This document shows, one piece after another, positions 3,948 through 7,920 of a DNA stretch of 18,199 nt. Source of the stretch: Vulcanisaeta sp. AZ3 (lineage in GTDB: Archaea; Thermoproteota; Thermoprotei; Thermoproteales; Thermocladiaceae); contig JZWU02000030.1 of the NCBI GenBank assembly GCA_000960865.2, positions 1 through 18,199 on the forward strand, given 5' to 3'. A program made the translations under genes and the position numbers. How positions within the stretch are numbered: position 1 is the stretch's first letter; every line of letters begins with the position of its first letter. Under the pieces are notes generated by a model, which did no database searches, was not told the DNA's origin, and saw only the letters and a list, made by a program, of their open reading frames with translations.

Positions 3948-5144
3948 GTGAGTACGGATCAGGAAATTGTAATTACTGGTTTTGTCAGGGCACCTATTGG
4001 TAAGTTTGGCGGTGCTTTTAAGAACGTTAAGACACCATACCTCGCAGCTGAAGTTATTAAGGCTTTGATTAACAGGGTTGGTGTAGATGGTAAGTTAATA
4101 GATGAGATCATCTTTGGATCAACACTACAGGGTGGCATGGGGCAAAACCTCAGTAGGTTTGCCGCATTATTGGCAGGTCTACCTAATAGTGTTAGTGCAT
4201 TCACAGTTAATAGAGTATGTTCCTCAGGTATGCAGTCGATAATTGAGGCTGTTAGGGCGTTGAAGGTTGGCGATGTGAGCTTGGTAGTAGCTGGTGGTGC
4301 CGACTCTATGAGCACATCACCATTGGCCTTGAGCCATGAGGTTAGGTGGGGAGTTAAGCATCTAATTAATAAGGACCTCAAGTTCATGGACCTGATGGTC
4401 TATGATGGCCTAACAGACCCGACAAACATGATGCTCATGGGTCAGGAAGCAGATAAAGTTGCTATGGAACATGAAATTACTAGGGAGGAACTTGATGAGG
4501 TGGCGTATGAGAGCCAAATGAGAGCCTTGAAAGCCACTGGGAATAAGTACTTCCGTGAACTTGAGCCTATGGATACCGTAATAAATGGGGAAAAGGTATA
4601 TCTGGATAGGGATGAGGGGATAAGGCCTGATACGACTCTCGAGAAACTAGCTAAGCTAAGGCCTGCCTTTGGGCCTAATGGACTTCATACAGCAGGTAAT
4701 TCCTCACAACTCTCAGATGGAGCAGCTGCGTTATTAATAACCACGATGGATAAGGCTAAGGAATTGGGGTTAAAACCAATCGCAAGAATCGTTGGTTACT
4801 CATGGCATATGTTAGAACCTTGGAGATTTCCCGAAGCCCCGATTTATGCAATTAGGAAATTATTAGATAGAGTTGGTTGGTCAATAAGCGATGTGGATGT
4901 TTTTGAGATTAATGAAGCCTTCGCCGTTGTGAACGTGCTCGCCCATAGGGAACTAGGTATACCCTATGAGAAGATGAATATATTCGGCGGGGCCATAGCC
5001 CTAGGTCACCCGCTCGGTACTAGCGGCGCGAGAATCGTGACTACATTAATATCGGCATTAATGCACATAGGTGGTAGGAGAGGGGTAGCGGCTCTATGCC
5101 ATGGAACTGGCGGAGCCACTGCCGTGGCTTTAGAGATGCTTTGA
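3948..5144 (+). CDS. Acetyl-CoA C-acetyltransferase/3-ketoacyl-CoA thiolase (classical type)
   Basis: NRVCSSG (nucleophilic Cys), GNSSQLSDGAAA, EINEAFA, GHPLG and LCHGTGGA. GTG start. Confidence 0.95.
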   Translation: MSTDQEIVITGFVRAPIGKFGGAFKNVKTPYLAAEVIKALINRVGVDGKLIDEIIFGSTLQGGMGQNLSRFAALLAGLPNSVSAFTVNRVCSSGMQSIIEAVRALKVGDVSLVVAGGADSMSTSPLALSHEVRWGVKHLINKDLKFMDLMVYDGLTDPTNMMLMGQEADKVAMEHEITREELDEVAYESQMRALKATGNKYFRELEPMDTVINGEKVYLDRDEGIRPDTTLEKLAKLRPAFGPNGLHTAGNSSQLSDGAAALLITTMDKAKELGLKPIARIVGYSWHMLEPWRFPEAPIYAIRKLLDRVGWSISDVDVFEINEAFAVVNVLAHRELGIPYEKMNIFGGAIALGHPLGTSGARIVTTLISALMHIGGRRGVAALCHGTGGATAVALEML

Positions 5145-5183
5145 TTAGGCATACTAGGCCTTTTGATTTATCGTTTTACCTAG

Positions 5184-5202
5184 AACAAAAGGTTTTTAAA
5201 TA
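5184..5202 (+). promoter_or_regulatory. BRE/TATA promoter of aRF1
   Basis: AACAAAAGG followed by TTTTTAAA (5193-5200). The predicted transcription start is about 5222, coinciding with a GTG. Confidence 0.65.
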
Positions 5203-5253
5203 AAGAAACATCCACCATTTCGTGGACGTACTGGAATAAAGGATTTCTCAGAG

Positions 5254-6363
5254 TTGAAGGTGGTAATAAACCTACTTAAGAAGTATAGAGGTTATGCAAC
5301 AACACTCATAAGCCTATACATAAATAGCAATAGGCCTATACCCGATGTTGTATCAATGCTTAGACAGGAGTGGGCCTTAGCCAGTAATATTAAGGATAAG
5401 ACTACGAGGACTCATGTTCAAGATGCTCTCGAGAGGATAATAAACTCAATTAAGGGGATATCCAAGGCTCCTGAGAATGGATTAGCCGTGTTTGGAGGCT
5501 TTCATATGATTAACCCAGGTAATTATGAGTGGGTTTTCTATGCCCTAATACCGCCAACACAAATAACAATTTTCAAGTATATATGCGATACTTCATTTCA
5601 TACGGAAATACTTGAGTCCATGGTAAAGAGTAGCGATACGTATGGTATAATAGTTATTGAGAGAGGAGAGGCTGTGATCGCACTTCTGAGGGGTAATCAT
5701 TGGGAGATTGCTGATAAGGTTCAATTCTTTGTACCAAATAAGCACGCTGCGGGTGGGCAGTCAGCCCTGAGGTATAAACGACAGACGGAGCATTTGGCGG
5801 AGACCTTTTATAAGCTCGTTGCTGAGAGAGTCAATAAGATATTTAATGATATTCCGAATCTAAAGGGTATCGTAGTTGCAGGTCCTGGACCCACTAAAGA
5901 GGAGTTCCTTGAAGAAGACGGTCTTGATTATAGACTTAAGGATAAGGTCATAGCTGTAGTGTCGGCATGTTGTGCCGATATTGGTGGTATTCTTGAGGCT
6001 ATTAGGAACGCTGAGGATAAGCTTAAGGAGACTGAGTATGTTAAGGCTAAGAAGCTGATGGAAGAAGTGATGTACTTAGCTGTGAAGAAACCTGAATACT
6101 TAATATATGGTAAGGATGCTGTTCTAGACTCAATAAAGAAGGGTATTGCAAAGGTTGTTATTGTTAGTGAAGATGTTGGTGAGGAGGAGATCATGAACCT
6201 AACAGTAATGCTTAGAGGTAGAAGAGACGTGGAGCTATTCGTAATGCCTAAGTCGGTTGAGGAGAATTTAACATTAACTCAGACCTTCGGCGGTTACGTA
6301 GCAATACTATCATCACCCTCATGGCTAATGGAGAACTATGAAAATAATGAAAGCAACTCATAG
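5254..6363 (+). CDS. prf1: Peptide chain release factor aRF1 (true start probably GTG 5222, in another frame, see findings)
   Basis: TLISLYI, NIKD (NIKS-equivalent loop), YICDTSF (YxCxxxF), GGQS, GPGPTKEEF and C-terminal FGGYVAIL. Confidence 0.95.
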   Translation: MKVVINLLKKYRGYATTLISLYINSNRPIPDVVSMLRQEWALASNIKDKTTRTHVQDALERIINSIKGISKAPENGLAVFGGFHMINPGNYEWVFYALIPPTQITIFKYICDTSFHTEILESMVKSSDTYGIIVIERGEAVIALLRGNHWEIADKVQFFVPNKHAAGGQSALRYKRQTEHLAETFYKLVAERVNKIFNDIPNLKGIVVAGPGPTKEEFLEEDGLDYRLKDKVIAVVSACCADIGGILEAIRNAEDKLKETEYVKAKKLMEEVMYLAVKKPEYLIYGKDAVLDSIKKGIAKVVIVSEDVGEEEIMNLTVMLRGRRDVELFVMPKSVEENLTLTQTFGGYVAILSSPSWLMENYENNESNS

Positions 6364-6390: not shown

Positions 6391-6675
6391 TTAACCACCA
6401 CCGGCTGGTGGTAAAAACGTAACCTCATCCTCACTCGATAATTTCGTATCTAAGCCTTTGAGGAAGTCTATTGATCTACCGTTAATTAATACTACATATT
6501 GATCTCTTAGCTTGCCATTATCATCAAGGATAACTCTTGAGAAGTTAGGGCTTATTGCCTTATCGATTATTTGAATTAAATCCTTAACGGTGGCATTTTC
6601 AGGTACATTAACCTCTGCCTTGAGCACCTTAGTAACATCATATAACGAAGCAAGAAACTTAACCTGAACCTTCAT
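6391..6675 (-). CDS. MoaD/ThiS/SAMP(Urm1)-family ubiquitin-like sulfur carrier or protein modifier
   Basis: 94 aa beta-grasp pattern VKFLA...TVKDLI...VLINGR...LDTKL..EDEVTFLPPAGGG with a C-terminal di-glycine. TATA TTTTTAAG on the minus strand at 6700-6707. Confidence 0.9.
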   Translation of the reverse strand: MKVQVKFLASLYDVTKVLKAEVNVPENATVKDLIQIIDKAISPNFSRVILDDNGKLRDQYVVLINGRSIDFLKGLDTKLSSEDEVTFLPPAGGG

Positions 6676-6771
6676 CAATATCTAATGTACAACATATCGC
6701 TTAAAAACCTATTTTTAATGTGCGCATTTTATTACTTATAATGAATAAGCATTAAATAAGGGGTTAATACG

Positions 6772-7920
6772 ATGAATTCCTTAATGAGGCTTAGATGGGT
6801 TGGGCTTACCTTAGCCTCCACATCATTCTTAATGTCGTTGTTACTTAGGGTTTTTTGGGGACCATTAACCCCATTCATACTTAGAAGCGGAGTTAGTAGT
6901 TATATTATTGGATTAGTTGGTTCTGTGTTCTTCATTGGTTATGTCATAGCTCAGTTAATAGGTGGATTATTGGCTGATAGAGTAGGGGTAGGCGCGGTGA
7001 TGGGTATTGGGTTAATATTATCGGGTATTACTAACATGCTTTATGGCTTGTTTTCGGCAAGCTCATGGATTCTGTTATCAGCAATTATTGGGTTCTTTGC
7101 AGGATTTGAGTATGCACCTTCTGTTAAGGTAATTAGGGAATTATTCAGTGATACGCTTGAGAGAGCCATGGGTATATATGCCATAGCCTGGGCATTACCC
7201 TTCATGATTGCTGCGGCTATCGTGCCACCGCTTGCTTACTACTCAATTAAGTTTGTGTTCTATGTGATTGGCATTATGACAACCATAGTAGGTATTATTG
7301 ATATAGTCATGCTGAGAGGTATTAATGAGACGAGGACCGAGAGTATTATCAAGGCACTTGGTACGCTTAGGAATAGGAATGTATTGTTAATAGGTTTAGG
7401 TGGATTTTTCATACTATACATGAATTGGGTCATAGCTTACTGGCTCTATGACTACCTCGTAGACTCGGGCCTCAGTATCACTTATACATCACTATCCTTC
7501 ACAATATTTACAATAGCAGGGATAATAGCAATGCCACTTAGTGGTCAATTAGCCCATGTAGTTGGCGCCAGAAATATCCTCCTCATAGATATAATCGTCT
7601 ATTCACTAAGCGGCGTATTAATAGCGCTAATTCCTAAGTCGCCCTACGTATTTCTCTTGGCTGCATTGCTCGGTGTTGGTAGGTTCATAACTACGCCAAT
7701 GCAATCAACACTTATAGCGGTATCCGTCGATAGGAAGTTTGTATCGACAGCCACCGCCGCAGCTAACACCCTATGGCAATTAAGCGGAATATTAGCTCCA
7801 TATATGACATACCTAATTGCCTCAATATATGGTATGGAGACCTCAATAATTATATCATCATTATCACTACTGATTTCGCTAGCACCATATGCCCTTGTTA
7901 ACACCAAGCCTGGCAGATGA
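6772..7920 (+). CDS. Major facilitator superfamily transporter
   Basis: About 12 hydrophobic segments, with motif A in both halves (GLLADRVG and GQLAHVVGAR). Confidence 0.9.
   Translation: MNSLMRLRWVGLTLASTSFLMSLLLRVFWGPLTPFILRSGVSSYIIGLVGSVFFIGYVIAQLIGGLLADRVGVGAVMGIGLILSGITNMLYGLFSASSWILLSAIIGFFAGFEYAPSVKVIRELFSDTLERAMGIYAIAWALPFMIAAAIVPPLAYYSIKFVFYVIGIMTTIVGIIDIVMLRGINETRTESIIKALGTLRNRNVLLIGLGGFFILYMNWVIAYWLYDYLVDSGLSITYTSLSFTIFTIAGIIAMPLSGQLAHVVGARNILLIDIIVYSLSGVLIALIPKSPYVFLLAALLGVGRFITTPMQSTLIAVSVDRKFVSTATAAANTLWQLSGILAPYMTYLIASIYGMETSIIISSLSLLISLAPYALVNTKPGR

Follow-up and report, generated by a model that had tools for sequence, protein, structure and literature searches.

The gene for the release factor aRF1 in Vulcanisaeta opens one base out of register with a short leader ORF, and this offset is genuine. 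The early TAA and the −1 offset that an initial annotation of the locus had pointed out are present in all family genomes in which the N-terminus is covered, and we reject sequencing error as their source. From the comparison of these sequences, we propose that the synthesis of aRF1 probably depends on a programmed −1 frameshift of the ribosome where a leader ORF of two to six codons ends, with negative feedback. The balance of probability tilts slightly towards a broader statement, namely that the whole family makes its sole release factor only via a −1 shift at G_GAA_UAA on a leaderless or near-leaderless mRNA, with the factor setting its own level. All coordinates refer to the window, the whole stretch of 18,199 nucleotides that was analysed, and all features lie on its forward strand.

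Anatomy of the aRF1 locus

A purine-rich, BRE-like AAAAGG is followed by the TATA-like octamer TTTTTAAA (positions 5187–5200, with the octamer at 5193–5200), both recognised by reading the sequence. The leader ORF occupies positions 5222–5239 and is composed of five sense codons and a stop: GTG (5222–5224), GAC, GTA, CTG and GAA, then TAA (5237–5239). The aRF1 coding frame spans positions 5236–6363 (375 residues), its stop codon being 6361–6363. It starts with ATA 5236, AAG, GAT, TTC, TCA and GAG before it reaches TTG 5254. Since codons of the leader frame start at 5234 and 5237 and a codon of the aRF1 frame starts at 5236, the required shift is −1. The proposed shift site, G_GAA_TAA, spans positions 5233–5239.

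On its 5′ side, the aRF1 frame is shut by a TAA at 5197–5199, which lies within the TATA box and 13 codons ahead of ATA. ATG, GTG and TTG are absent from this frame between that TAA and TTG 5254; a frame scan thus bears out the claim of the initial annotation that the interval lacks a start. The BRE/TATA element, the leader from GTG 5222 and the −1 offset of aRF1, all described in the same annotation, were confirmed base by base. A second in-frame start candidate, GTG 5260, had gone unmentioned there; TTG 5254 and GTG 5260 (5254–5262) are the canonical codons that gene callers pick, and neither is conserved.

The closest solved structure to the gene product is 3agk, 'peptide chain release factor subunit 1' (E 1.9e-60), presumably that of Aeropyrum pernix aRF1. 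The protein scores 391.3 bits with the aRF-1 equivalog model TIGR03676 (cut-off 234.7) and 55.8 with the Pelota model, under the cut-off of 177.65 for the latter. Its translation contains NIKD, YICDTSF and AGGQS, which represent the NIKS-type, YxCxxxF and GGQ motifs (as named in excerpts of PMC3521657) and are invariant in the family alignment. The gene as a whole is strongly conserved across that alignment.

In genome G000 (90% complete), the aRF1 gene is the sole match to the eRF1_2 domain and hence single-copy, so that the stop codon of the leader is read by the product of its own gene. As in prfB, an early in-frame stop, here a UAA at leader codon 6, is recognised by the encoded factor.

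Conservation of the offset within the family

We compared the 5′ region of the gene across the family, which comprises 31 species genomes. Three were excluded, one without a match (54% complete) and two in which the gene is cut at a contig end. All 28 remaining genomes, from five genera, share the layout [ATG|GTG], zero to four codons and xxG GAA TAA, with aRF1 at −1. The alignment of Vulcanisaeta, Caldivirga and Thermocladium sequences that the initial annotation had suggested therefore shows a conserved start, a few codons, a stop and a −1 continuation. We also looked for relatives with an extra base and a continuous ORF from the GTG, and the offset was kept in 28 of 28 genomes.

The same layout is seen in 9/9 family genome-contig records with a covered N-terminus. 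A metagenome scan yielded 80 loci, 73 of them with a covered N-terminus; 27 are of the family type, all with the offset, and the remaining 46 open with an ordinary in-frame start codon. Over all routes, 66 of 66 family loci contain TG-GAA-TAA, and these represent 31 distinct sequences over positions −25 to +12 (some genomes were fetched twice, and L116, L154 and L158, chance matches from unrelated archaea, were removed). Because related genomes are non-independent, these counts describe conservation and are not statistics. The recurrence of the layout is nevertheless far beyond chance.

The initial annotation had considered a dropped base at least as likely as recoding. This explanation is rejected, since the offset occurs in every family genome examined, complete ones included, and in contigs of other sequencing runs. 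Contigs from three public runs (two studies) span positions 5206–5273 without inserted or missing letters; one of the runs may be the source sample of the window.

The seven bases of the shift site are identical in 31 of 31 distinct sequences. G(−1), GAA and TAA are all invariant, and AUA likewise, which gives a constant element of NTG GAA TAA in the leader frame that overlaps GGA ATA A in the aRF1 frame. Further upstream, the leader differs between lineages. Most Vulcanisaeta (genus code g1) have GTG GAC GT(A/C), or GCC as the third codon, followed by (C/T)TG GAA TAA. The V. distributa-like leader is ATG GTT GAT GCC CTG GAA TAA, and four codons ahead of ATA the aRF1 frame of these sequences contains a TGA. 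Caldivirga (g2) has GTG GA(C/T) GCN CTG GAA TAA and Thermocladium (g5) has ATG GAT GCA (C/T)TG GAA TAA. Of two further genera, g3 has ATG GGA GAT CTT ATG GAA TAA and g4 is reduced to ATG GAA TAA alone.

Two types can be distinguished by the distance from ATA to a conserved E-L: six codons in type A (53 loci) and thirteen in type B (13 loci; g3 and g4). Their shift sites are homologous at the nucleotide level. The additional 21-nt unit of type B lies downstream of the site and resembles the leader unit, but is in frame.

Selection acts on different frames on either side of the site

Conservation extends to the leader peptide, (V/M)-D-(V/A)-L-E, in which the 15 distinct type-A sequences differ by silent or conservative changes only. 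This applies to all six variable sites before GAA when they are read in the leader frame (GAC/GAT, GTN/GCN, CTG/TTG and GTG/ATG). The aspartate is invariant and encoded by GAC or GAT, the V/A position is found with all four third bases, and the leucine is invariant and encoded by CTG or TTG. Read in the aRF1 frame, the same changes would give R/C and, at a single position, any of T/P/L/A/I/S, and 3 of the 15 sequences would contain a TGA stop.

After ATA, the aRF1 frame is free of stops and both other frames carry them. Over the 13 codons that follow ATA in type B, third codon positions vary at 12 sites, first positions at 5 and second positions at 3, and the coding signature of the aRF1 frame starts directly after the shift site. 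Also, the stretch after ATA in g3 and g4, IKSGVYEIKSLNEL, aligns with the aRF1 N-terminus of Pyrobaculum/Thermoproteus, NGVYYVKTPVEL, whose start is an ordinary ATG or GTG. The substitution pattern on either side of the site argues for translation in the leader frame as far as GAA and in the aRF1 frame after that, beginning with ATA.

Two other ways of connecting the frames were ruled out. Readthrough of UAA would run into further leader-frame stops, which are present in 18/18 type-A and 9/9 type-B distinct sequences. A hop from GAA to a downstream GAG or GAA (the Glu of the conserved E-L) would skip codons that carry the coding signature of the aRF1 frame.

Promoter spacing places the leader at the mRNA 5′ end

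The block AAAGG-TTT(A/T)TAAA also precedes the gene in relatives. As a stricter BRE+TATA pattern gave too few matches, we scanned genome G000 for TATA-like octamers and found 186 ahead of the first start of ORFs of at least 150 codons. The gap between octamer and start is 20–26 nt in 78 of the 186, with a mode of 21–22, and this peak is the picture expected for leaderless mRNAs. Measured in the same way, GTG 5222 lies 21 nt, ATA 5236 35 nt and TTG 5254 53 nt from the octamer. GTG 5222 thus sits on the genome-wide mode for first starts. As judged from this spacing, a leaderless mRNA probably begins with the leader start, 21 nt past the octamer. Leader-start gaps are 21–25 nt in all Vulcanisaeta and 19 nt for the ATG of g3.

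Other lineages depart from this arrangement. In the Thermocladium type (L032, L034 and 5 more loci), the aRF1 frame contains a GTG at the leaderless position, with a gap of 19; this GTG could yield aRF1 without a shift, and the lineage may not need one. A one-base difference in the sister species L033 places the leaderless-position GTG in the leader frame. In Caldivirga, the start at the leaderless position opens a conserved 3-codon ORF, which is closed by TAG just before the leader GTG, and the leader GTG itself is situated 30–31 nt past the octamer. The leader ATG of g4 is about 30 nt past the TATA (hand count), with 33 for L028. With such spacing, a simple leaderless mode does not account for initiation on the leader in Caldivirga and g4.

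A proposed −1 slip at G_GAA_UAA

On the proposed frameshift, transcription would start approximately 21–25 nt past the TATA, and the mRNA would begin at or next to the leader start (GTG 5222 in the window). The ribosome would initiate on the leader and make (M)-D-V-L-E, which would bring UAA into the A site while peptidyl-tRNA-Glu(UUC) occupies GAA in the P site. When aRF1 is plentiful, the pentapeptide would be released. When it is scarce, the A site would stay empty and tRNA-Glu would slip one base back onto GGA. After the slip, Ile-tRNA would read AUA, giving full-length aRF1 with the leader residues at its N-terminus, and aRF1 would thereby repress its own synthesis. Since the waiting stop is cleared by aRF1 alone, termination and slipping would compete, with the outcome set by the supply of aRF1.

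The prfB-like recoding put forward in the initial annotation has gained comparative support from the frame-specific substitutions, the unconserved canonical starts and the position of the leader start, where a leaderless mRNA would begin; the slip itself and the feedback by aRF1 are what we infer from this pattern.

Re-pairing from GAA (5234–5236) to GGA (5233–5235) would involve G-C, G·U and A-U pairs, with the G·U at the middle position, as derived from the codon and the UUC anticodon. tRNA-Glu(UUC) is found in G000, and both tRNA-Glu species are present. In the codon use of this genome, CTG is the rarest Leu codon (6%; TTG, 14%), GAA is the minor Glu codon (30%) and ATA is the major Ile codon (49%). 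The rare Leu and minor Glu codons of the leader fit a constraint at the nucleotide level. Third positions that neighbour the fixed codons of the leader drift freely.

The site does not conform to either of the well-described patterns. The initial annotation had noted the lack of an X-XXY-YYZ heptamer, and indeed neither CTG_GAA nor G_GAA_TAA fits the canonical −1 arrangement X_XXY_YYZ for tandem slippage. The +1 site of prfB, CUU_UGA_C (YTT_TRA_C), is not found either, the shift being −1 and the site G_GAA_TAA. We know of no experiment that shows −1 slippage on G_GAA_UAA.

No conserved stimulator was detected, neither a stem-loop nor a pseudoknot 5–9 nt downstream as is typical of canonical −1 sites. 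The predicted fold of positions 5222–5320 is no better than that of shuffled sequences (z = −0.68), RNAalifold returned an empty consensus structure over 38 distinct sequences, and Rfam gave no match at E up to 1 within 5100–5450. Some Vulcanisaeta sequences contain a hairpin that is lost in others. With respect to the 16S tail GGATCACCTCC, no Shine-Dalgarno-like stimulator is consistent across the genera; AGGTG occurs upstream of the site in Caldivirga only and is absent from Vulcanisaeta and the other genera.

Initiation at AUA

The leader and aRF1 frames could also be connected by termination and reinitiation, or by direct initiation, at the invariant near-cognate AUA that overlaps the stop, in which case the protein would begin at the Ile at 5236. 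We regard this as unlikely, if a serious contender. ATA is among the start codons of NCBI translation table 11, overlapping stop and start codons are a common coupling device, and AUA is the codon from which the aRF1 frame shows its coding signature. The codon is invariant in 31/31 distinct sequences and so shares part of the conservation on which the frameshift proposal draws. However, with GAA and UAA fixed, AUA is fixed automatically, and its invariance is thus not independent evidence.

The conservation of G(−1), GAA and the leader peptide serves no need of initiation at AUA. If TAA were mutated to TGA, an in-frame ATG would result, but this variant is seen in 0 of 66 loci. Among the same 66 loci, we found no canonical start that overlaps or abuts the stop (ATGA, TAATG), only the near-cognate ATA. 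Also, no consistent Shine-Dalgarno-like site lies ahead of AUA. Finally, more aRF1 would mean more termination and hence more reinitiation, which would result in a positive and not a homeostatic loop.

Canonical starts and public annotation

The first in-frame ATG, GTG or TTG past the site is located at residue 29–35 in 8 of 39 distinct sequences, in or beyond the invariant KKYRGYATTLISLY...RP block, and five of these eight are also without any in-frame start upstream. A first start 29–35 residues into a conserved domain implies that non-standard decoding is needed. The doubts that the initial annotation raised about TTG 5254 hold as well: in most relatives, the aligned codon is CTT, TTA, CTA or CTG.

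Public gene calls for the family place the start at no fewer than six different positions, some of them upstream of the promoter. The database protein for the window itself (P0001) begins at GTG 5260, and another (P0006) begins at an in-frame Met upstream. Every public N-terminus of aRF1 in the family appears to be wrong or arbitrary.

These data bear on a plainer reading of the locus, in which the leader is a mere small uORF, regulatory or accidental, and aRF1 is made from the next canonical in-frame codon (TTG 5254 or GTG 5260 in the window). The choice of gene callers agrees with it, and 26 of 39 distinct sequences have a canonical start among the first 4 aligned residues (L031, at −2, is counted; L057, at −8, is not). 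Nevertheless, we consider it quite improbable. The aligned codon is a non-start in most relatives, and initiation at residue 29–35 in the eight sequences would delete the invariant block. The 6–13 codons that precede the canonical start carry the coding signature of the aRF1 frame, and those of g3 and g4 align with the Pyrobaculum/Thermoproteus N-terminus (SGVYEIKSLNEL versus NGVYYVKTPVEL). Solved aRF1/eRF1 chains mostly have 9–15 residues before the aligned point (5 to 37 among the matches listed).

A correction at the RNA level, in which slippage of the polymerase or editing adds a base in GGAATAAAG and standard translation proceeds from GTG 5222, would result in the same protein as the frameshift. 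Excerpts of PMC5009743 and PMC3711429 state that known transcriptional slippage requires long homopolymer runs. The longest run here is AAA, and Caldivirga has AA followed by C; moreover, the strict retention of the stop codon would be left unexplained, and we therefore find this route very hard to credit.

The probability of a decaying pseudogene or a sequencing or assembly error is negligible: one missing base would look identical in a single assembly, and three drafts of the genus (G002, G003 and G009) do have frame breaks elsewhere in the gene, but these mid-gene breaks differ between species, unlike the 5′ offset, whose layout is the same in all 28 genomes, complete single-contig ones included, and free of indels in the contigs of three runs from two studies, and the gene is single-copy and strongly conserved.

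Relation to known recoding systems

Release factors that control their own synthesis through a frameshift at a stop codon are a textbook example of recoding, although, to our knowledge, only bacterial RF2 and two giant-virus genes are known to do so. The frameshift that we propose for aRF1 resembles that of prfB, which encodes RF2, in several respects: a release-factor gene has an early in-frame stop read by its own product, a single P-site tRNA would re-pair imperfectly with a G·U while the A site waits, and the site is conserved in many taxa. Re-pairing in prfB relies on G·U pairs too, and its shift site is found at about codon 26. The aRF1 site comes earlier, at codon 2–6 of a probably leaderless mRNA, and in contrast to prfB, the locus has no detected Shine-Dalgarno-like stimulator, the stop is UAA and the factor is the single, omnipotent one of an archaeon. 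The proteins are unrelated, with an aRF1/eRF1 fold on one side and RF1/RF2 on the other. The direction differs as well: Vulcanisaeta aRF1 would use −1 on G_GAA_UAA, whereas prfB uses +1 on CUU_UGA_C, a site whose wide conservation is described in excerpts of PMC3711429 and PMC12421855.

Mimivirus R726 and Megavirus mg280 are closer in terms of the protein, since they are aRF1/eRF1-type factors that need recoding at internal stops. According to excerpts of PMC3521657, they require a frameshift and a readthrough, which was interpreted as autoregulation. They differ in being viral, in having two recoding events and in their long 5′ UTR. The same excerpts describe such autoregulation as absent from eukaryotic and archaeal homologues, and a cellular archaeal case would thus be new relative to that paper.

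In ornithine decarboxylase antizyme, a shift at the stop of a short first ORF into the main ORF likewise serves as a feedback sensor (excerpts of PMC1874602). However, antizyme is eukaryotic, shifts by +1, senses polyamines and not the gene product, and has known downstream stimulators. The fucA1 gene of Sulfolobus solfataricus provides a −1 ribosomal frameshift in a crenarchaeal cellular gene, which has been studied experimentally (excerpts of PMC1616953). It differs from aRF1 in that it joins two long ORFs away from a stop codon and has no known feedback role. The fucA1 shift is said to take place on an A-rich heptamer.

At 'shifty stops', such as that of Bacillus subtilis cdd, a P-site tRNA slips by −1 with a stop codon in the A site. 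These tRNAs re-pair perfectly on homopolymeric bases, and cdd has an upstream Shine-Dalgarno-like element, whereas re-pairing at G_GAA_UAA would include one G·U and we found no stimulator.

If the proposal is correct, no cellular factor of the aRF1/eRF1 type before aRF1 of this family would have been described with feedback like that of prfB; it would be independent of the bacterial one, opposite in direction and based on a new kind of shift site. The same control logic would then have arisen convergently on an unrelated fold and a different ribosome, and the very short list of cellular −1 frameshifts in archaea would gain a second member. G_GAA_UAA would represent a new shift site that works without a heptamer or downstream structure, and the locus would offer a natural system for the study of frame maintenance in the first codons of leaderless mRNAs.

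Full-text searches of the literature turned up no archaeal precedent; the supplementary GeneTack cluster tables of PMC3711429, which could list the gene, are outside this scope. In excerpts, aRF1 is unmentioned in a 2021 review of archaeal recoding (PMC8211752) and a 2016 review of frameshifting (PMC5009743), and archaea are unmentioned in a 2025 survey of prfB (PMC12421855). The only paper found that pairs Caldivirga with release factors, PMC2613156, makes no mention of frameshifts in its excerpted text.

Distribution outside the family

We did not detect the offset in any of 15 genomes from the family of Pyrobaculum and Thermoproteus or in 2 genomes of a third family in the order. The same holds for 19 genomes that represent ten other families of the class, a sample drawn from the 84 genomes with a match among 86 searched. 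The simplest history would have the offset arise once, in the ancestor of the family.

Within genome G000, we inspected all 660 GGAAT(AA|AG|GA) sites, and only at that of aRF1 does a short leader lead into a long −1 ORF without a nearby in-frame start. There are two other matches to the pattern, one on contig C5 and one on contig C1 in the gene of an iron-sulfur protein, but ordinary in-frame starts follow 2 and 11 codons later, and both are therefore chance matches.

A 'TAG inside match' in two Pyrobaculum-like genomes proved to be an ordinary C-terminal stop. In 20 of 20 sampled genomes (one of them from the Pyrobaculum/Thermoproteus family), an in-frame start is present ahead of helix 1; 18 of them have an ATG there, and the other 2 have just GTG or TTG.

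Initiation distances and upstream start codons

In G000, the 90%-complete genome that we scanned genome-wide, the gap from the TATA-like octamer to the first start codon has its main peak at 20–26 nt and a small second cluster of 16 cases at 29–31 nt. This second distance is the one at which the aRF1 leader starts in Caldivirga, Thermocladium and genus g4, and the cluster may correspond to mRNAs whose 5' leaders are about 8–10 nt long.

The 12 nt preceding the leader GTG in Caldivirga hold a conserved mini-ORF of the form (A/G)TG GTG NNN TAG, which is in the leader frame (aRF1 loci L010–L013, L044, L054, L068 and L069). Its TAG directly abuts the leader GTG, which has a gap of 30–31 nt to the TATA box; the mini-ORF itself starts at the leaderless distance, with a gap of 18–19 nt. 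These two successive tiny, stop-closed ORFs may indicate that initiation in this genus is two-step or follows a different route.

Loci of the Thermocladium type (L032, L034, L059, L094, L095, L097 and L104) carry a GTG in the aRF1 frame with a gap of 19 nt to the TATA box, and this frame is open up to the ATA. The public annotation (database protein P0045) uses this GTG as the start. At L033, from a sister species, this GTG falls in the leader frame instead, owing to a one-base difference.

Sequence changes around the shift site and within aRF1

In type-B genes (genera g3 and g4), which have thirteen codons between the ATA and the conserved E-L instead of the six of type A, a unit of approximately 21 nt resembling the Vulcanisaeta leader is present in two tandem copies (L030:1441–1489 and other g3/g4 loci). 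Copy 1 contains the shift site, and copy 2 is in frame (SGVYEIKS), with GAG ATA AAG or GAG ATT AAG at the position of GAA TAA AG in copy 1. The tandem leader-like units suggest that sequence around the shift site was duplicated, or else that it was deleted in type A.

Additional mid-gene frame breaks or stops are found in the aRF1 matches of three Vulcanisaeta drafts that are 63–67% complete (G002, G003 and G009), and locus L036 has a lengthened G run within the KYRG codons of aRF1. All of these have the appearance of common assembly errors, in contrast to the conserved 5' offset.

Neighbouring genes

Judged from their translations, the neighbours of aRF1 encode three proteins. The first is thiolase-like (3948–5144, plus strand), and its ORF ends 78 nt upstream of the start of the aRF1 leader. 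The second (6391–6678, minus strand) has 95 residues and, like ubiquitin-like sulfur carriers, ends in Gly-Gly-Gly. The third resembles a transporter with multiple helices (6772–7920, plus strand).
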